Source: a phage. From it: DNA of 64,000 nucleotides. A program made the translations under genes and the position numbers. Under the pieces are notes generated by a model that saw nothing but the letters and a program-made list of their open reading frames with translations, ran no database searches and was not told the origin of the DNA. The DNA lies in assembly GCA_036930585.1 (NCBI GenBank), contig GCA_036930585.1_3066.1. One strand, given 5' to 3'. Numbering within the stretch: the stretch's first letter is position 1; every line of letters begins with the position of its first letter. Shown here one piece after another: positions 2,563 to 62,581 of this stretch.

Positions 2563-4090
2563 CTACTGTTATCCATTTACCATTAATCTGTACTTCATCA
2601 TTTTCATTTACGATAATTGTATCGCCATTTAGTTCGAAAGTAAACCACTCGCCATCTTCTTTTTCTTCAAACGCCTTTTCACCGAGAACTAATCCAGTGA
2701 TTGCGCAAATATCAAACAATTCTTTGTTTTTAAGCATATCAGCATATGACATACCCCAACTGTTGAGAACTTTACCGCGCAATGGATAACCACCATGAAG
2801 TTCTTTATCACGAACATCAATAAGATATCCGATAGCAGAATCACCCTCAGTCAAGAAAAGAGTAGTGTCAGCATCTTTACCGCAAAGATTCGCTTTAATG
2901 TGTTTATGAACCTTAGCTTTAGAAGCCTTTTTAGCTGCTTTAGTTTCTGCTGCCTTTTCTGCCGCCAATTTACGAGCCAAAGCAGCTTCAATAATCGGCA
3001 TTAGAATTGCTTCATTATTTAGAATAGCACGTGAAATCTTTTTAGCATCAAGTTGAATATGACTACGGATTTCACCAAATGGAGAAGTCAAACGCTCTTT
3101 AGTTTGAGAATCAAATCGCATGTTTTTCATATCACGGACAAACATAACGATAGTCAAACATTCTTTAACGCGTGCTTTAGTCACATCAATTTTGAACTTA
3201 CGTTTGATTTGTGGAATAAGGTCTTCACAAATATCATCCATAACACAGTCAATGTGATGGCCACCATTCTTAGTGTGAATGTTATTCACATAAGTTAATT
3301 GACGAAAACCATCCGGTGAACGACCAACCGCAATAGAGCAATTTTCTTGTTCTTGAACGATAGCATGTTCATCATATTGGCGTGCATATTTCTTAAAATT
3401 GCCCTGAACCTTTTTACCATTAAAGGTAAATTGAATATCAGGATAAACTACTGCAAGTGTCTGGAGACGATCTAGTGTAATGTCAAGATAAACTTGGGAC
3501 AGCTCATTAGTTTCAAATGACATAAAATCAGGAATGAAAGTAACACGAGTTCCTTTCCATTTTCCAGGAATAGTTTCCCATGATTTATTTTCCATGCCAT
3601 TTGAACAACGAACTACAATATTATTTTGACCATCACCAGTTTCACCGACAAACATCACAGAAAAAATGTTTGTCAAACTAGAACCAACACCATTCATACC
3701 ACCGGTGACACGTTCTTTATCATCACCAAAGTTACCACCTGCTTTTGGAATAGTCCAGGCAGCAACAGGACCAGGAATTTCTTCACCAGTAGGTGTTTTG
3801 ACCATCGCTTGTGGAATACCGCGACCGTTATCTTCAACTGTTACTTGATTGTTTTTAATAGTAACATTAATTTTATTTGCGAATTTAAACTTAGTACGAA
3901 TACCTTCATCTACTGAGTTATCGATAATTTCATCAATAAGCTTAACAAGACCAGGTACATACTGAACACTTTCCCATTTACCAAACAGAAAGCGCTCATG
4001 CATTTCATTAGCAGAAGAGCCAATATACATGCCGCTACGCTTTTTGATATGTTCAATATCGCTCAGAATTTTAATTTCATTCTTAATCAT
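2540..4090 (-). CDS. 39: DNA topoisomerase II large subunit gp39 (GyrB-like ATPase), 516 aa
   Basis: translation MIKNEIKILSDIEHIKKRSGMYIGSSANEMHERFLFGKW...; GHKL ATPase motifs (VEDNGRGIP); ATG at 4090 preferred over track GTG at 4093. Confidence 0.9.
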   Translation of the reverse strand: MIKNEIKILSDIEHIKKRSGMYIGSSANEMHERFLFGKWESVQYVPGLVKLIDEIIDNSVDEGIRTKFKFANKINVTIKNNQVTVEDNGRGIPQAMVKTPTGEEIPGPVAAWTIPKAGGNFGDDKERVTGGMNGVGSSLTNIFSVMFVGETGDGQNNIVVRCSNGMENKSWETIPGKWKGTRVTFIPDFMSFETNELSQVYLDITLDRLQTLAVVYPDIQFTFNGKKVQGNFKKYARQYDEHAIVQEQENCSIAVGRSPDGFRQLTYVNNIHTKNGGHHIDCVMDDICEDLIPQIKRKFKIDVTKARVKECLTIVMFVRDMKNMRFDSQTKERLTSPFGEIRSHIQLDAKKISRAILNNEAILMPIIEAALARKLAAEKAAETKAAKKASKAKVHKHIKANLCGKDADTTLFLTEGDSAIGYLIDVRDKELHGGYPLRGKVLNSWGMSYADMLKNKELFDICAITGLVLGEKAFEEKEDGEWFTFELNGDTIIVNENDEVQINGKWITVGELRKNL

Positions 4091-16342: not shown

Positions 16343-16543
16343 ATGGCACAAAAATTAATGGCACTTGTTAATGCCATCAAAGGTAATAAAAAACGTATAG
16401 CTTTTACTATTTCTGCTATGATAGGAATTTTACTTTGGAATTTTGTTTTATCGCCAGTTGCTATTGCTCATGGTGTTAGTATTCCAGTAGTTACTCTTGA
16501 TACATTCGTAGATCTAGCATTTGCTTTAGTTGGGTTAATTTAA
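16343..16543 (+). CDS. small hydrophobic protein (predicted 2 TM helices), 66 aa, on plus strand with strong SD
   Basis: AAGGAGG 4 nt upstream of ATG; MAQKLMALVNAIKGNKKRIAFTISAMIGILLWNFVLSPVAIAHGVSIPVVTLDTFVDLAFALVGLI; only plus-strand ORF lying in an otherwise non-coding gap. Confidence 0.45.
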   Translation: MAQKLMALVNAIKGNKKRIAFTISAMIGILLWNFVLSPVAIAHGVSIPVVTLDTFVDLAFALVGLI

Positions 16544-17571
16544 ATCTTGGCATATTTAGATAACCGCATTTTAGCCATTAACCCCTGGGCAATATTATTT
16601 TTCATATATTCCACAATTTGTTCAGGGGTTGCACCTTCCTTTCTAATCATATCATTAACATCTTTTGATTTCCAGGGAGATTTATCCCAAAACATAACCC
16701 TTTCTCCTGCATCAACTAATTTAGTCATTCGCTTGATAGTGTCAGGGTGACGAGGTTCATTATCTAAAACCCACACTCGTCTATCTTTAAATGGAACAAC
16801 TTCTAGGTCTAATTGACCACCCGTAATAGCTATACCATTTTCAATAAAAAGTGAATCTATAGGTCCTTCTAGAACATATACATCACCATCTTTAACTCGT
16901 TCGACTCCATATATTTTTGTTGCCTCAGGATAAGCTTTGATGGTGATATATTTTTGAGGAGCATCTTTCTTTAATGCACGTCCTTGAAAAGACTCAGCTT
17001 TTCCGTTAGCATTATAAATTGGAATAACAAGACGAGGCTCAGGTGTTTCCTTTTTATATGTTCCTGGAGCTATACTATTAACTAATTTAGGCCATTCAGT
17101 TGTAAACCAAAGATATTTCCATTTATCCTTTGGAATACAACGAGCTTTTACATATTTTATAATTGGATGGTCTTCCGCCAATTTATCTAATCTGATGCAT
17201 GACGGAAGAGATTTAATTATTTTCTTCTCAGGTTGTTTAGGAAGTTCTTTAGGTTTTTCTACTGGACGACTTTTACCTTTTTCTTTTCTTATTTCAAAGA
17301 TATACTCACGATATAAATCAGGTTCAAACTCCTTTAAATATATTCCGATTGGTGCATGATAGTTACAGTTATAACAATGAATATTTCCTTCATTATTATC
17401 ATCGCCATAATACCATCCACGGGCTTTATTTTGATCGGTTTTTGAATCTCCACAAACGGGACATCTAAACCGTAATTTAAAAGTTGAACTATTATTTACT
17501 TGTGCGAATTTAGGTAAATGAGCCAATGCACGGTATGCAAACTCATTATCAATCCAAGGTATTGATGACAT
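16540..17571 (-). CDS. 61: DNA primase gp61, 343 aa
   Basis: MSSIPWIDNEFAYRALAHLPKFAQVNNSSTFKLRFRCPVCGDSKTDQNKARGWYYGD... zinc ribbon + TOPRIM. Confidence 0.9.
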   Translation of the reverse strand: MSSIPWIDNEFAYRALAHLPKFAQVNNSSTFKLRFRCPVCGDSKTDQNKARGWYYGDDNNEGNIHCYNCNYHAPIGIYLKEFEPDLYREYIFEIRKEKGKSRPVEKPKELPKQPEKKIIKSLPSCIRLDKLAEDHPIIKYVKARCIPKDKWKYLWFTTEWPKLVNSIAPGTYKKETPEPRLVIPIYNANGKAESFQGRALKKDAPQKYITIKAYPEATKIYGVERVKDGDVYVLEGPIDSLFIENGIAITGGQLDLEVVPFKDRRVWVLDNEPRHPDTIKRMTKLVDAGERVMFWDKSPWKSKDVNDMIRKEGATPEQIVEYMKNNIAQGLMAKMRLSKYAKI

Positions 17572-17573
17572 TT

Positions 17574-17738
17574 TTACTCTTCTTTTTCTTTAGATTCCTC
17601 TTTTTTCTTTTTAGGAATCTGTTCAGGACCTTTATTTACTACAGCGCCTGACGTTGTTCCAGTAGAGATATTTTCAGGACTACCACCTGAATCTCCAGCG
17701 ACCATATCTTCTTTGATAAATTCTTTATATGTTTTCAT
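17574..17738 (-). CDS. small hypothetical protein, 54 aa (61.1 position; not in ORF track)
   Basis: MKTYKEFIKEDMVAGDSGGSPENISTGTTSGAVVNKGPEQIPKKKKEESKEKEE. Confidence 0.5.
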   Translation of the reverse strand: MKTYKEFIKEDMVAGDSGGSPENISTGTTSGAVVNKGPEQIPKKKKEESKEKEE

Positions 17739-17784
17739 ATTAACCTCTATTCATAAAAGCATTAAAAATTTGGTCATCAATAGA
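17736..17784. repeat. 49-bp direct repeat copy A (37 nt identical, then 2 mismatches in 12) spanning the stop of the 118-aa gene and the start of 61.1
   Basis: catattaacctctattcataaaagcattaaaaatttggtcatcaataga. Confidence 0.8.
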
Positions 17785-18096
17785 TGGCGCAGTAATATTT
17801 TCTGCATCATTTAGCAAATCATTAATTTCATCAGATAGCATAACACACGTACCTTTATTTCCTGTAATTGTTACTGCACAATTACGAACGTTTTCTTTAT
17901 CAAATTTTAGGTTAATATTTTCATAGTGAAAATCCTTTAATGCCGAATATATCTTTAAAATGAAATTGTCTTTTACTACAATAAACCCAACCTCACTATT
18001 AAAACGCGGTTCATGGAAACTGTAATAAACCTTTTCATCTATAAAATCGTATGAAATTTTTTCCATTTTTAAATATGAAAATTCAGAACTATACAT
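17740..18096 (-). CDS. single-domain paralog of 61.2, 118 aa
   Basis: shares VKDN-containing domain and identical C-terminal 14 aa SIDDQIFNAFMNRG with the 210-aa 61.2 product. Confidence 0.6.
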   Translation of the reverse strand: MYSSEFSYLKMEKISYDFIDEKVYYSFHEPRFNSEVGFIVVKDNFILKIYSALKDFHYENINLKFDKENVRNCAVTITGNKGTCVMLSDEINDLLNDAENITAPSIDDQIFNAFMNRG

Positions 18097-18142
18097 ATTA
18101 ACCTCTATTCATAAAAGCATTAAAAATTTGATCGTCAATAGA
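18094..18142. repeat. 49-bp direct repeat copy B spanning the stop of 61.2 and the start of the 118-aa gene
   Basis: catattaacctctattcataaaagcattaaaaatttgatcgtcaataga. Confidence 0.8.
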
Positions 18143-18730
18143 AACTTTTACTTTAGGCTGTTCTTCAAACGGTAATTCATATCCACATATTACAATTTTG
18201 TGATCGATACCAAAATACACAGAAGCAATATGATTAATGATGTTTTCAGTAAAGTCTAAATTAACATCAATATCTTTTTGACCACAGCCCAAAGGATAAA
18301 TAATGCGAGTAATTCGATTATCTTTAACAAATATTCCACCGACATACTCTGTGCTGCGTTTAAAGTTTACACGTTTCCTAAATGAAAAATATTCAGGTTC
18401 TTTATGGGCTCGACTCATAGGGCTTAAAGTGTATTCCGAATATGAAATATCAAATCCTACACCTTCAATATGAGCCAAAGTGTCATGATTAAACCAATTA
18501 TAATCGTATGCCAAATCCATTAAATTGTAATATGTGAAAGGCACCGGATTAACATCATATGTTGTACCTTTAAAATCTGCCCAGGCAACGATTTCGTTAT
18601 CTTTAACAATTACAAAAATTGTGCCAATAAGATATCCACGGTTATTTTCATCGGGCGTTATATTATAACATTGTGCATCAGGAAATTTACCGTATTTAAA
18701 CGGTGGATTTTTGTGCATATAATAAATCAT
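18098..18730 (-). CDS. 61.2: 61.2-like two-domain protein, 210 aa (T4 61.2; possibly the protein reported as anti-DarT factor AdfA, from memory)
   Basis: position between 61.1 and sp; internal duplication of VKDN domain. Confidence 0.6.
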   Translation of the reverse strand: MIYYMHKNPPFKYGKFPDAQCYNITPDENNRGYLIGTIFVIVKDNEIVAWADFKGTTYDVNPVPFTYYNLMDLAYDYNWFNHDTLAHIEGVGFDISYSEYTLSPMSRAHKEPEYFSFRKRVNFKRSTEYVGGIFVKDNRITRIIYPLGCGQKDIDVNLDFTENIINHIASVYFGIDHKIVICGYELPFEEQPKVKVSIDDQIFNAFMNRG

Positions 18731-18731
18731 A

Positions 18732-19025
18732 TTATTCGCCTGTGATTTCGGTTACGATATTTTTATTATTGAAGTTTTTATCACAATACAGAACGTAATT
18801 ATACTGCATTACACCACCAGACTTAAGCTGTTTTTGTACTTCAGCTTTCATTTCAGGACGATCACGTTCAACGATATTCATAATATCCGCTTCAATTTGA
18901 GTTTCAACTTCAGTCTGATCTGCAGTCATAGACCATTCGCACAAATCTTTGTCATAACCCGCCATAGCAGGCTGAGCAGCGCAAGAAGATAAAGCAAAAA
19001 TTGCAGCAAAGATAAATTTTTTCAT
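18732..19025 (-). CDS. sp: Spackle (Sp), periplasmic protein with signal peptide, 97 aa
   Basis: MKKFIFAAIFALSSCAAQPAMAGYDKDLCEWSMTADQTE... Confidence 0.85.
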   Translation of the reverse strand: MKKFIFAAIFALSSCAAQPAMAGYDKDLCEWSMTADQTEVETQIEADIMNIVERDRPEMKAEVQKQLKSGGVMQYNYVLYCDKNFNNKNIVTEITGE

Positions 19026-19085: not shown

Positions 19086-19343
19086 TTATTTTAAAACTTC
19101 TGCATAATCACATGTTACAAACTGTTTCTCTAACTTGGCGATTTTACGAAAGTATCTTTTGCATTGACGAATCTGTCGCTTTGTAGGGCGCACAGCAAAC
19201 TTAATAAATTCCACTCGACCAAATGGAGGGCTTTCTTCTGCCGGAATATCTAATACTAATTCCCACGTATCCGCAATAAGCGCTTTGAATTGCGTATTTT
19301 TCCTGACGTTATACGGAGTAGGTTTAAATAAAACAATATGCAT
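19086..19343 (-). CDS. hypothetical protein, 85 aa (61.4 position)
   Basis: ATG at 19343 with GAGGA SD; track TTG start rejected. Confidence 0.55.
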   Translation of the reverse strand: MHIVLFKPTPYNVRKNTQFKALIADTWELVLDIPAEESPPFGRVEFIKFAVRPTKRQIRQCKRYFRKIAKLEKQFVTCDYAEVLK

Positions 19344-19344
19344 A

Positions 19345-19527
19345 TTATCCTCGGCAATCCACTTCACATACCTTCTTGTCATCAATGAAAGCTTTAACTA
19401 GTGCTTTATTAACTTCAGCATATTGAGTAGTAGCCCATTGAACGTCATCTTTCATCATTGTGGTTTCTTTAGTAAACATGCTTTCATTCTTAAACCACCC
19501 CATAAAAACTACCTTTACCAATTCCAT
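19345..19527 (-). CDS. dmd: Dmd (discriminator of mRNA degradation; antitoxin of RnlA/LsoA), 60 aa
   Basis: MELVKVVFMGWFKNESMFTKETTMMKDDVQWATTQYAEVNKALVKAFIDDKKVCEVDCRG. Confidence 0.9.
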   Translation of the reverse strand: MELVKVVFMGWFKNESMFTKETTMMKDDVQWATTQYAEVNKALVKAFIDDKKVCEVDCRG

Positions 19528-26017: not shown

Positions 26018-28714
26018 TCAGCCAAACAGGAAGTCTAACGAAGCTTTTTCTTCATAGTCCATACCTGCCGATTCACACATACCCGCAAGCGGTTTAACAA
26101 ACGATTTTTGGAACAAAGTTGAGTGGTCAATCCAAGATAGCACATCAGAACGAATTTCTTTTGGAAGTTCTGTACCCGATGGCCAAGCAATGCACTTGTC
26201 ACCAAATGGATTTCCTTCACGTAATGGAAGAACCATTACTTTATTTCCATCCAAAATTGGAGCTACACCCAGACCACTAACAGCTCGACGATAAGTTAGC
26301 ACACCGCGAATATGGAACGGGCATTTAAATCCTGGCCAACCTTTATCATCATATTTCGCTATATCGTTCGCAGTTTTTACTTCAGCAATAACTTTATAGT
26401 CAAGTTGACGATATTCTTTCTCGAAGTTCTTGTAGTATTCTTGGACAGACTCTTCACCTTCTTGAAGAATACGACGAATACTTTCTTCGAGAGCTTCTTG
26501 CACTGCTTTTGGTGTTGAACTCTGCTGAGTTTCCATACCCATGATTTTTAGATGCGGTTCAGCAAATCGTTTATCTTCCATATCATAAACGTTCAGAGCA
26601 TAACGCTTTTTCGCTTTCCAAAATCCACCAACACCCTTTGAACCAAGTGGAGGGCAAGAAATAGCTTCACGGTCCATATGCATCAGATGCTCGCGGTTAT
26701 TCATATAATCACATAACTCACGATATGCAGCATCAATCATAGGTTCCATCTTTTTCTTACCGAACTGATTCATGAATTCAACTAAATCGTTCTGCTCTTT
26801 GAATCGGTCAAGACCAACTTTTTCAATAACTTTATCTACACAAACATATACCGAATCAGTATCACCTGCTGCGATGAAATCTTCACCATTAGTTCCGCAT
26901 ACTTTATTCAGATATTCATTAATTTTACGAGCAATCCACTGAATACCAACTTGGCCGAAAATTGTGATAGCAGTAGCATTTCGCAAATCATAGTAACGGA
27001 AATGAATATTACCAAGAGCACCGTAAAGACTGTTAATAAGAATTTTACGGTTCAGCTGATTTGTGTTAGCAAGTGTAGCTGCTTTTTCACATTCTTCAAT
27101 CAAACTATTGAGAACAGATTCGGTGTAATTCGATAGTTCATTTAAGAAATCATCACTGAACTTAACATATCGTTCAACTTCAGGTTTAGTTGAACAAGAC
27201 CCTGCGCCTTTCATAATAATCTTTTTGATAGCTTCGGCATTCATTTCTTCAGCGAACATTTTCTTTTTCCAGTCTTTACGCTGGAAAAATACTTTAGCGA
27301 TTTCCTTTGGAATGATACCTTCTTGATGCTTATCATACATCCATCCATTCGGAGAACAAGAATATTCATCACTTGGTTTAGGAGCTGTTCCTGCGATATA
27401 TTCATGAATTGGATGAACTTTAAACTGACCACGAATAGTCTCAGGACTAATGTTAACCTGACGAATAATGCTCGGATACAGAGACGTCAAGTCAAAACTC
27501 ATAATATATCGACGAGCAATTGGTTTAGGTTCAAATACGAATGCACCCGGAAAACTCTGTTTAACGTGCGAACCTTGTTGAGGAATAACCTTATGTTCAC
27601 CTTTCAATGAGTTAAAAATAATAGCATCCCAAGTTTTAATAGGACTCATTACACCAGAAAAAGGCATTTTAGCGTAATAAGACATACTTAAAACTAGATC
27701 GATAAACCCGCGAATTTTATCAATTGCTTGAACTGATTCTACGTCAATGATGTTATAACTAATGTATCGTTGATGATTAGTCTCACGAAGTTTATTAATA
27801 GGACCGTCGTATGGTAATTTACCTTTTTTGGTTTCATGTTGAGCAACTGATTCCAAAGAGAATGACGGCAAATTAGTAAAAGCGAATTTCTTGTACAAAT
27901 CTAAATAATCAAGAATAGATACGCCATCAATAGAATAAATTTCTTTGCTACCGTACACATTTTGAATTAGTTTAGATTTTACCCGACCGATTGGAGAGAA
28001 ACGTTTCATACTACGTTCACCGAGAACCATTTTAACACGATTCATGATATACGGAACGTCAAATCCCTCAATATTCCAACCAGTAAAAATAGCAGGTCGT
28101 TTCTGTTCCCAAAGATTAATATATTCCATGAGCATATCACGCTCATTATCGAATGGCATATAAATTACTCGGTCAAGAATTTCTTGAGGAACTTCATCAC
28201 CACCTTCACAGTCAAGCTTAGCAGCTAACTTTGCATCCCATTTTGATACTGAACCGTACATTGAATTCAAAAGGTCGAAAACATAAAAACGATCATCAAT
28301 TGAATCATAATGAGTAATAGCATCAATTTCATATTCTGCTTTCATTGGGTCAGGAAATTTATCACCAGTAACCTCAATGTCACAGTTAGCTACACGAACA
28401 AATTTTCGGTCATAAACAATTTCTGAACCGTATGTATCACTGATATAAGCGAGTTTAAAATCGTTCATACCAAGAGCTTCGAGACCGATGTCTTCCATTC
28501 GCTTCATCCAATCTTGAGCATCTTTCATTGATGGAAATTTTTGAGGAGCACAGTTTTTACCATAGATGTCTTTGTACTTTGACTCTTCCTTACAATGCCT
28601 AAACATAGTCGGAAGATATTCTACTTCACGAGTACGTTCCTTTCCGTTTTCATCAATATAACGTTCAACAATGTTATTTCCGACTGTTTCGATAGAGATA
28701 TAAAATTCTTTCAT
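26018..28714 (-). CDS. 43: DNA polymerase gp43 (family B), 898 aa
   Basis: MKEFYISIETVGNNIVERYIDENGKERTREVEYLPTMF...; exonuclease and polymerase motifs (YGDTDS). Confidence 0.95.
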   Translation of the reverse strand: MKEFYISIETVGNNIVERYIDENGKERTREVEYLPTMFRHCKEESKYKDIYGKNCAPQKFPSMKDAQDWMKRMEDIGLEALGMNDFKLAYISDTYGSEIVYDRKFVRVANCDIEVTGDKFPDPMKAEYEIDAITHYDSIDDRFYVFDLLNSMYGSVSKWDAKLAAKLDCEGGDEVPQEILDRVIYMPFDNERDMLMEYINLWEQKRPAIFTGWNIEGFDVPYIMNRVKMVLGERSMKRFSPIGRVKSKLIQNVYGSKEIYSIDGVSILDYLDLYKKFAFTNLPSFSLESVAQHETKKGKLPYDGPINKLRETNHQRYISYNIIDVESVQAIDKIRGFIDLVLSMSYYAKMPFSGVMSPIKTWDAIIFNSLKGEHKVIPQQGSHVKQSFPGAFVFEPKPIARRYIMSFDLTSLYPSIIRQVNISPETIRGQFKVHPIHEYIAGTAPKPSDEYSCSPNGWMYDKHQEGIIPKEIAKVFFQRKDWKKKMFAEEMNAEAIKKIIMKGAGSCSTKPEVERYVKFSDDFLNELSNYTESVLNSLIEECEKAATLANTNQLNRKILINSLYGALGNIHFRYYDLRNATAITIFGQVGIQWIARKINEYLNKVCGTNGEDFIAAGDTDSVYVCVDKVIEKVGLDRFKEQNDLVEFMNQFGKKKMEPMIDAAYRELCDYMNNREHLMHMDREAISCPPLGSKGVGGFWKAKKRYALNVYDMEDKRFAEPHLKIMGMETQQSSTPKAVQEALEESIRRILQEGEESVQEYYKNFEKEYRQLDYKVIAEVKTANDIAKYDDKGWPGFKCPFHIRGVLTYRRAVSGLGVAPILDGNKVMVLPLREGNPFGDKCIAWPSGTELPKEIRSDVLSWIDHSTLFQKSFVKPLAGMCESAGMDYEEKASLDFLFG

Positions 28715-37606: not shown

Positions 37607-37825
37607 TTATTTCTCTAATATAAAATAAAAATCATCATCTGTTAAATGATATCTGTAATTTAATTCTACACCATTAGATTTAAAAGCGGTATCATACGGA
37701 TTTTCTGGATCAATATCAATGTCAAGAGCTAAAACTTCCCTGAGATACATTTTAAGTAAATAGGGAATAGCTTCAACTTCAGGTATTTCTTCCAAGAATC
37801 CGGAGAGGTTAATCGTTAGCCTCAT
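37607..37825 (-). CDS. hypothetical protein, 72 aa
   Basis: ATG ORF overlapping gene 55 stop. Confidence 0.5.
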
Positions 37826-38366
37826 ATAAAAAATCCAAACTAGGAGAATCGTCTACAACACTTTTCTTTTCAGCCCCCGGTGTTCTATAGGTTGATTCTT
37901 CGTAATGCGTCATTTTATCGTAGATGTCTTGAATAAAAGTTTCATCTACTAACGCAACCATATCGTCGTCACGACTGTCATAGACATTGTGAACGAAGTA
38001 ACTATATTTCTTTGCAACTTCCTTACGTTCTTTTTTAATACGTTGGACGAATGCATTAAAACAAGCTTGAGTTATATATGCATGTGGGTTTTTATATTTC
38101 GTTTCATCAAAATTATGAAGCCCCTTAATAGAAGCTTCTATACCATCTGCAATCATTTCTTGTTTCCAAGACTGGGTGTATCCTGAAAAGTTGAAACGTT
38201 TAGATAAGCCTTCTGCAATAAGCATAATGGCTAATCCGATAGTATCATTCTGACGAACTACTTTATTTGGGTCTTTATTATTTGCTAATTCTGTTTTCCA
38301 ATCAATAATAGCTTGTAAAAGCTCTTTATTGTTTACGTAATTATATTTAGGCTTAGTTTCTGACAT
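37809..38366 (-). CDS. 55: late-transcription sigma factor gp55, 185 aa
   Basis: ATG at 38366 ([58 protein letters not shown]...). Confidence 0.9.
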
Positions 38367-62002: not shown

Positions 62003-62581
62003 TTAATTACCGCGGGCCGCATTAGCGACGGCGTAAGCGTACTGAACATTAGCGTCTTTAAACGTACCTTTAGAGGTATCTATTTCTGCCTTAAAGCCAC
62101 CTTTAGCCATAACATCGGCAAATTCTTTACGGAAAGCCATTGCATCAAGACCTTTCCATGATGATTTATGCTTGGCAAATTCAAGACCAGCGTAGTTGAC
62201 AGCTTTAGCTAATTTATTATCAATAACCCATTTACCGGCTTTAGGCACAAACTTCGGGCCTTTTTGTTTAGAGAACAGTTTTAAATTCCAGCGACGAAGA
62301 TCACTGTCGGCTTTAACAAAAGCTGCATCTAAGTTACTAGCAACAACATCTTCAATATGAGCAAATTTGAGTCCGTCAACTTCAATATTTAGATCGTTAC
62401 GCCAGCGAAGTCCTTCCCAAGCAAAGGCTTTAAAATCAGAAGCCTTTGTAGCTAAGTACCGTTCAATAGGAGCAGTTTTAGGGTCAAAGCCGTTTCCGCC
62501 ACGATAAGTCCACTCGTCCTTATTAATGCCTTGAGCTTTTCCTGCAAAGGCCTCGGCGATAAATTCTTTATACGTTTTCAT
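62003..62581 (-). CDS. ipIII: internal protein III (IPIII) with N-terminal capsid-targeting sequence, 192 aa
   Basis: MKTYKEFIAEAFAGKAQGINKDEWTYRGGNGFDPK... Confidence 0.8.
   Translation of the reverse strand: MKTYKEFIAEAFAGKAQGINKDEWTYRGGNGFDPKTAPIERYLATKASDFKAFAWEGLRWRNDLNIEVDGLKFAHIEDVVASNLDAAFVKADSDLRRWNLKLFSKQKGPKFVPKAGKWVIDNKLAKAVNYAGLEFAKHKSSWKGLDAMAFRKEFADVMAKGGFKAEIDTSKGTFKDANVQYAYAVANAARGN

Follow-up and report, generated by a model that had tools for sequence, protein, structure and literature searches.

The window, the whole stretch of 64,000 nucleotides of phage DNA analysed here, is identified by its sequence as DNA of a Tequatrovirus (T4-like phage), and the region discussed below is 96-98% identical to Tequatrovirus genomes, hundreds of which were matched. 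The dmd-tifA-adfA region has been proposed as an anti-TA island, the remaining genes of which are 'attractive anti-toxin candidates' (PMC9391042). Between sp and gene 61.1 lie the two open reading frames, of 118 and 210 aa, that an earlier note on this DNA had described, and both are present at the positions given there. The two proteins end in the same 14 residues, SIDDQIFNAFMNRG (the tail), encoded within a direct repeat that carries over from each gene into the next:

19345-19527, minus strand: dmd, a known anti-toxin gene of the same island
19086-19385, minus strand: tifA (61.4), a known anti-toxin gene of the same island
18732-19025, minus strand: sp (spackle, 61.3), bounding the variable slot on its upstream side
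18098-18730, minus strand: adfA (gene 61.2), anti-DarT factor A, 210 aa, assigned from the open reading frame and Pfam PF23813
18094-18142, minus strand: repeat copy B, with the last 14 adfA codons, a second set of P61-type promoter elements, SD, stop and the short-gene ATG
18113-18122, minus strand: MotA box TAATGCTTTT of copy B, from the sequence and the annotation of phage Lutter
18095-18100, minus strand: -10 element TAATAT of copy B, with a predicted start near 18088
17740-18096, minus strand: short AdfA paralog, 118 aa, assigned from the open reading frame and PHROG 4122; 'RB32ORF033c', called 61.2 in T2
17736-17784, minus strand: repeat copy A, with the last 14 short-gene codons, a P61-type promoter, SD GAGG, stop TAA and the 61.1 ATG
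17755-17764, minus strand: MotA box TAATGCTTTT of copy A, within the F-N-A-F codons
17737-17742, minus strand: -10 element TAATAT of copy A, overlapping the short-gene stop and the 61.1 ATG; predicted start 17730, equal to T4 19122
17574-17738, minus strand: gene 61.1, 54 aa, PHROG 1823, in Tequatrovirus invariably next to the tail downstream
16540-17571, minus strand: gene 61, primase, the gene served by P61

The two copies of the repeat are 49 nt long, agree at 47 of 49 bases and are spaced 358 nt from start to start. On the plus strand the first 37 nt are identical, the two mismatches are synonymous and fall in two Asp codons, and each copy spans a stop codon together with the ATG of the next gene (TAATATG). 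The earlier description of the repeat, with its 37 identical nucleotides, its stop and start codons and the common 14-residue ends, is thus accurate. Likeness of this degree is far beyond chance, since the alignable codons of the two gene bodies are only 51% identical in DNA compared to 95% in the tail. As an observation on the downstream neighbor, gp61.1 begins MKTYKEFIKE and a 192-aa open reading frame beside the lysozyme gene (62003-62581) begins MKTYKEFIAE, with 23 of the first 24 nt identical. This shared start resembles the capsid-targeting leader of the T4 internal proteins, a leader that ends in a prohead-protease site (I-x-E). The 61.1 start also has a BLAST match to 'ip7' of RB15, in agreement with the idea of an internal-protein leader, and gp61.1 might be a packaged and injected peptide.

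The 210-aa protein matches Pfam PF23813 (AdfA) with 455.8 bits across the full model, and its gene is labelled 'anti-DarT factor A' in PV857777, a 97%-identical record. AdfA (gp61.2) is the anti-DarT factor A of RB69/T4 in the account that PMC11257639 gives of LeRoux et al. (2022), and the suggestion in the earlier note that 61.2 is an anti-DarT factor agrees with both the Pfam match and the literature (PMC11257639, PMC9391042). Few phage inhibitors of DarTG defence have been characterised, AdfA among them. It binds DarT1, with one residue of its C-terminal half switching that binding, and in RB69 AdfA a His at position 164 (R164H) is required for DarT1 neutralisation (PMC11257639). The AdfA of the window bears His at the equivalent position, in the motif INHIAS. 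Between the two halves of AdfA, only a VKDN strand motif of ~10 residues recurs; the score of the N-half against the C-half was reached by 424 of 2000 shuffles and is not significant, and an internal duplication of AdfA beyond the VKDN motif was rejected on this count. A single-sequence AF2 model of AdfA (pLDDT 32) was of no use. The gene also appears mosaic: RB69-like sequence makes up the N-terminal ~55 residues of the window AdfA and the end of sp on its 3' side (MIYYMHKNPPFKYGKFPDAQCYNIT; ...IVTEITGE), the T4 allele of the same adfA/sp stretch (18098-18730, 18732-18800) is very different (MLYQMHKCKDTYKYKGAQCYIINRENAG; ...IIAEVVGE), and further adfA segments (RITRIIYPLGCGQ vs RIIRINYPLSVSQ; INHIAS, INNIAS or INRIAS) assort independently among clusters.

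With the tail included, BLASTP aligns the short protein with AdfA at 34% identity over 123 columns (E 5e-10). Because much of this score comes from the tail, the last 14 residues were cut from both proteins for all tail-free comparisons. BLASTP then retains 34-35% identity to AdfA ~111-174 over ~62 aa (E about 1e-3), the profile-profile alignment by hhalign gives P=0.002 over 59 columns, and the score against AdfA 101-196 was reached by none of 2000 shuffles; the score against the N-half (AdfA 1-100) was reached by 145 of 2000 and is not significant. The multiple alignment is collinear from short-protein residue 2 and AdfA Tyr96 to the C-terminus, residues 2-10 of the short protein (YSSEFSYLK) aligning from Y96 on. 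The Pfam AdfA profile (PF23813) matches residues 22-118 of the short protein to profile positions 113-211 with 31.9 bits, against a gathering cut-off of 27, and residues 1-104 alone, from which the tail is removed, gave no Pfam AdfA match. The match to PHROG 4122 is strong (E 2e-72), and cluster representatives P0001-P0005 bear a precomputed PF23813 match. The AF2 model of the short protein (pLDDT 82.7, pTM 0.69) places the tail in a separate, low-confidence helix, and a Foldseek search of BFVD with this model returned family members as its sole significant structural matches: the short protein of Gaprivervirus (E 7e-12), a 212-aa AdfA model (1.5e-4) and a 145-aa protein of Gaprivervirus VR25 (4e-4).

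The support for membership of the body in the AdfA family, independent of the tail, is modest but consistent. Of the full-length AdfA architecture (~210 aa, composed of N-half, C-half and tail), the short protein has the C-terminal half only, and it can be identified as a paralog of AdfA residues ~96-210, including the helix with the DarT1-specificity residue. As neither the comparison with the N-half nor that of the AdfA halves with each other is significant, the short protein corresponds to the C-half of AdfA and not to a copy of an AdfA-internal repeat. The earlier note had taken it for one copy of a domain duplicated within 61.2; the paralogy to a part of AdfA holds, the internal duplication does not, and the similarity beyond the shared tail is real but modest and confined to the C-half. 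The short protein shares with AdfA the slot between sp and 61.1, the identical 14-residue tail, the VKDN β-hairpin and the helix of the R164H site, but it has 118 aa instead of 208-216 and bears Asn72 at the position equivalent to His164. Among distant sequences, a search of 1.84 billion representatives returned one full-length cluster and otherwise fragments, word-indexed searches found close relatives only, and searches of PADLOC and NCBIfam gave no matches.

DNA of the short gene occurs in ~299 phage records, including T2, RB32, RB27 and RB68. It is labelled '61.2' in the records of T2 and PP01, and that of RB18 describes 'some similarity to gp61.2; RB32ORF033c'. Pairwise dN/dS values of 0.07-0.29 indicate purifying selection. 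In Gaprivervirus (VR25, DK-13, DCP80), the same slot holds a 46%-identical ortholog, and the short gene must for this reason be old; it is best regarded as an old and functional gene rather than a recent duplicate. A recent tandem segmental duplication would be expected to leave copies alike over their whole length and bounded by no homology other than the junction repeat, whereas the bodies of the short gene and adfA share 34-35% of their protein residues and 51% of their DNA, compared to 95% in the tail. The proposal of a recent segmental duplication in the earlier note is accordingly contradicted by the ~299 records and the Gaprivervirus ortholog. In FL12, a 1-nt deletion in an A6 run right after Met11 frameshifts the short gene (1640-1894 of the compared piece) and leaves a called 33-aa open reading frame (MLSDEINDLL...NRG), a type represented by clusters P0030-P0032 and ~20 contigs; this is either a real inactivation or a homopolymer sequencing error.

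A point missed in the earlier note is that the repeat contains the promoter P61. The review by Hinton lists P61 among the T4 middle promoters identified by experiment, with transcription starting at 19122 (PMC2988021, Table 1), and with the T4 61.1 ATG at 19130-19128 that start is nt +9 of 61.1. Mapped on the sequence, P61 consists of TAATAT at -12 to -7, the 12-nt spacer ATGAATAGAGGT and the MotA box TAATGCTTTT, all within the tail. The coding strand of the repeat thus reads TCTATTGAYGAYCAAATTTT-TAATGCTTTT-ATGAATAGAGGT-TAATAT-G. The consensus for such promoters is a MotA box (a/t)(a/t)(a/t)TGCTTtA followed after 12+/-1 bp by a -10 element TAnnnT (PMC2988021), and both copies of the repeat fit this description with TAATGCTTTT, a 12-nt spacer and TAATAT, the single mismatch being at the last position of the box. 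The record of phage Lutter has a 27-nt promoter annotated in both copies. Copy A, which has the same sequence and place as T4 P61 and the same start at nt +9 of 61.1, can be identified as this MotA/AsiA-dependent middle promoter serving the primase gene, its start site having been mapped in T4. Unlike T4, the window bears the same elements a second time 358 bp upstream, and copy B is a putative second P61-type promoter that would start transcription inside the short gene. Its predicted start (~18088) lies inside the short open reading frame and upstream of Met11, the start annotated in T2.

Across 24 Tequatrovirus genomes the MotA box and the -10 element are invariant in every copy, and the variable positions belong to the spacer or to upstream bases. 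Box bases are altered (TGCCTT, TGCATT) in Gaprivervirus and in RB69-like phages while DDQIFNAFM is invariant there, so that selection also acts on the tail at the protein level, independent of the promoter. A scan of IMG/VR with the back-translated tail recovered 16 contigs, all of this locus, and the tail was not found elsewhere; a terminator and stem-loop scan of the region returned 0 terminator-like sites. RB3 (2073-2084 of the compared piece) and W143, which are without both genes, have no P61 MotA box and keep the -10 TAATAT and SD (GGTGAATAATTAGAGGCTAATATG). Middle-mode transcription of the primase gene must be organised differently in such RB3-type phages, which have no box.

The locus occurs in four arrangements in Tequatrovirus, counted by junction-specific searches of the phage collection; the counts are approximate, as BLAST pieces were joined and RefSeq and GenBank records are duplicated:

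adfA only: ~168 records, for example T4
both genes: ~158 records, for example the window
short gene only: ~141 records, for example T2, all with the junction GGTGAATAAT/TAGAGGTTAGTATG
neither gene: ~25-30 records, for example RB3, RB5-10 and W143

In a three-way alignment, taking exactly one repeat unit and the body of the short gene out of the window gives T4, and T2 is without precisely the adfA open reading frame. The tail adjoining 61.1 ends ...AATAGAGGT in 24 of 24 Tequatrovirus genomes. The adfA tail of 12 two-gene genomes ends in NKG (6), NRD (5) or NRG (1, the window), and adfA-only genomes have the 61.1-linked variant in 10 of 10 examined. Tails of this kind would be expected in adfA-only genomes if the crossover fell in the first ~40 nt of the repeat. 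Junctions of the T2 and RB3 types keep what appear to be the last codons of a tail (TAGAGGTTAGT, TAGAGGCTAAT), and these remnants, together with the two-gene array of Gaprivervirus, make an ancestral pair of genes with repeated loss more parsimonious than expansion. The evidence thus points to recurrent loss in a polymorphic anti-toxin island and not to expansion, a direction given by parsimony and not by a rooted phylogeny. Deletion mediated by the repeats, which the earlier note had thought possible, is supported by T4 and by the 10 adfA-only tails, and the comparison across T-even genomes, with its four haplotypes, does not favor the recent gain and the expanding counter-defence locus also envisaged there. 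Amplification is likewise not upheld, as the sole apparent extra copy comes from the Yersinia phage phiD1 (HE956711; 1458-2366 of the compared piece), where a tandem second short gene and a 33-aa fragment meet at a junction with many N; the junction being full of N bases, this copy is probably a misassembly caused by the repeat. Two further observations concern single genomes. L020, a Gaprivervirus-like contig with the 145-aa gene only, has kept that gene's own ...RD tail and fits a crossover inside the repeat poorly. The T2 sp gene (2841-3119 of the compared piece) has an extra A near its 3' end (AAAAATAATCATC vs AAAAATATCATC), so that the annotated Sp is shortened to 92-93 aa.

In Gaprivervirus, the slot downstream of sp holds a 145-aa gene (PHROG 8539-like) followed by a gene of 117-119 aa (VR25_038/037). 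The window likewise has two genes in this slot; those of Gaprivervirus both end in DDQIFNAFMKR(D/G) followed by TAATATG, the tail of the 145-aa gene reading ...SVDDQIFNAFMKRD, and the 119-aa gene is the short-gene ortholog (46%). The first gene of the array, in contrast, is not AdfA, and its tail-free similarity to AdfA is not significant. The 145-aa protein is linked to the AdfA family by the Foldseek match (E 4e-4) alone; as a counterpart of the AdfA N-half, in the manner of a split or fused gene, it gave no more than hints, with p 0.02-0.12 for one allele, no significant score with the T4 allele, and P 0.19 by hhalign. Since AdfA, the 118-aa protein and the Gaprivervirus 145-aa protein all bear the tail, at least three gene families share it at one slot. 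Gaprivervirus VR25 (2859-3080) and DK-13 (2811-3032 of the compared pieces) also have a 73-aa TifA(61.4)-like gene (RPTKRQIR) directly downstream of the short paralog, and a second 61.4-like gene lies upstream of sp, so that anti-toxin genes are differently arranged around the same tail junction.

Tails of paralogs within one genome differ at 1-2 of 42 nt in Tequatrovirus, 2 in DK-13, 7 in VR25 and 6 in DCP80, compared to 7-9 of 42 between the short-gene orthologs of the two genera. The bodies reverse this pattern, with orthologs 46% and paralogs ~35% identical. The pattern fits homogenisation of the tails by recombination, to which genus-specific promoter and coding constraint could contribute; these constraints alone could also explain the nucleotide identity, with no gene conversion.

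The explanation favored here, held as rather probable when taken as a whole, combines an old half-size paralog, a promoter-bearing repeat, repeat-mediated loss and a presence/absence polymorphism. The short gene most likely arose when a stretch reaching from adfA codon 96 or so to the next gene's start codon was duplicated once in tandem, a single event that would supply a copy complete with ATG, ribosome-binding site and tail. The bodies would then have diverged to ~35% identity while the tail stayed near-identical, held by a conserved C-terminal peptide, by the same bases serving as the MotA-dependent P61 and the translation signals of the next gene, and by homogenisation of the copies through recombination. 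The 49-bp repeat would in turn be a substrate for homologous recombination, a crossover inside it removing the short gene to give the T4 arrangement, and other small deletions could have left the short gene alone, as in T2, or removed both genes, as in RB3. Within the dmd-tifA-adfA anti-toxin island, the locus would thus be polymorphic for the presence or absence of genes.

In T4, recombination occurs readily at microhomologies as short as 6-10 bp (PMC9391042). The dmd-tifA amplifications and deletions of T4 (Srikant et al. 2022, PMC9391042) likewise concern recombination-driven copy-number change in the same island, but those used 6-10 bp microhomologies under laboratory selection, whereas here a natural 49-bp repeat marks a standing polymorphism in which loss alone, not amplification, is documented. 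Parallels are also offered by short segments common to different genes at a hypervariable slot, which combine a functional signal with recombination homology. The capsid-targeting leader of the T-even ip genes (reportedly from Repoila et al. 1994) and the promoter/stem-loop cassettes, or PeSL, of T4-type phages (reportedly from Arbiol et al. 2010) are said to be such conserved end-segments promoting cassette shuffling. The segment described here differs from these in its position at the 3' end, in coding for a C-terminal peptide and in containing a middle rather than an early promoter, and no stem-loop was found (0 terminator-like sites).

Other readings of the repeat and of the short gene deserve consideration. 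The repeat could mainly be a duplicated regulatory cassette, its identity kept by P61 and the ribosome-binding site, with recombination and the shared peptide as side effects. P61 does map exactly onto the repeat, the box and -10 element are invariant in all copies of the 24 Tequatrovirus genomes and Lutter has promoters annotated in both, but in RB69-like phages and Gaprivervirus the box is altered and DDQIFNAFM is not, and phages of the RB3 type are viable wholly without the box; this reading is a possible one that seems on balance unlikely. A recent gain, in which an unequal crossover during co-infection by a T4-type and a T2-type phage placed the short cassette beside adfA and the locus is expanding, is still harder to sustain and is considered improbable. 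The sequence TAGAGGTTA(A/G)TATG common to all junctions could support such a crossover, T-even phages recombine freely in mixed infection (PMC11257639), and the tails of the window are unusually alike, its adfA ending in NRG being the only one among 12 two-gene genomes. Against this, the T2-type junction TTAGTATG differs from the sequence TTAATATG that precedes the short gene in two-gene genomes, junctions of the T2 and RB3 types resemble remnants of the last tail codons, Gaprivervirus also has a two-gene arrangement with a tail on each gene, and the NKG and NRD variants of two-gene genomes are absent from 10 of 10 adfA-only genomes.

There is little likelihood that the 118-aa open reading frame is what is left of a decaying partial duplication and has no function. 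The gene is dispensable, being absent from T4 and the RB3 group, and FL12 and others have it frameshifted by the 1-nt deletion in the A-run; that deletion is in a homopolymer and may be a sequencing error, however, while the dN/dS range, the intact frame in ~299 records, the ortholog kept in a second genus and the confidently predicted fold all speak for a maintained gene. That the duplicated tail arose by misassembly of one gene has next to no probability: the extra copy with N bases in phiD1 is apparently an artefact of this kind, but ~158 independent records share the adfA-to-short junction, which refutes the artefact that the earlier note had asked about, and bodies that are ~35% identical cannot be collapsed copies. 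An old paralog subject to repeat-mediated loss thus remains the preferred reading.

With regard to function, the short protein would be a stand-alone toxin-recognition half of AdfA with a different target, and is most likely an AdfA-like small binder or blocker of a host toxin with a different specificity. Without adfN, T2 is 10^4-fold sensitive to DarTG1, with four logs of plating lost (PMC11257639). As T2 has the short gene and no adfA and yet needs AdfN, the short protein at its native level is not protective against that DarT1. The AdfA of T4 can equally be dispensed with there, and the T2 result therefore leaves activity against other DarT variants possible. A more speculative and rather doubtful proposal is that the tail is a portable functional module by which various toxin-recognition domains could be docked to a single shared partner. 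If true, the short protein and the 145-aa protein would each independently inhibit other toxins, DarT-like or unrelated, and part of the system would still be present in T2 and other phages described as being without adfA. Tethering to the replisome through a clamp-like tail was considered and set aside: the clamp-binding C-termini of gp43 (26018-28714; ...KASLDFLFG) and gp55 (37809-38366; SLDFLY) share with the tail SIDDQIFNAF only S-[IL]-D...[IL]-F, a resemblance too weak to serve as evidence, and nothing tested supports the idea.

The short gene and the repeat constitute a variable locus, not a new or expanding one, and the finding is incremental, there being earlier records of the gene, of the family and of the promoter. 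What appears to be undescribed in the literature consulted is their combination, namely one tail across three families, four haplotypes, and a paralog in phages said to lack adfA. For annotation, the '61.2' of T2 and PP01 is the short gene, whereas T2 has been scored as being without an adfA homolog (PMC11257639). The half-size paralog, present in ~300 T-even-type records including T2, provides a concrete candidate for an inhibitor with different specificity, and the coincidence of the recombination repeat with the mapped primase promoter P61 means that one short sequence couples gene content, transcription and translation in an accessory locus.
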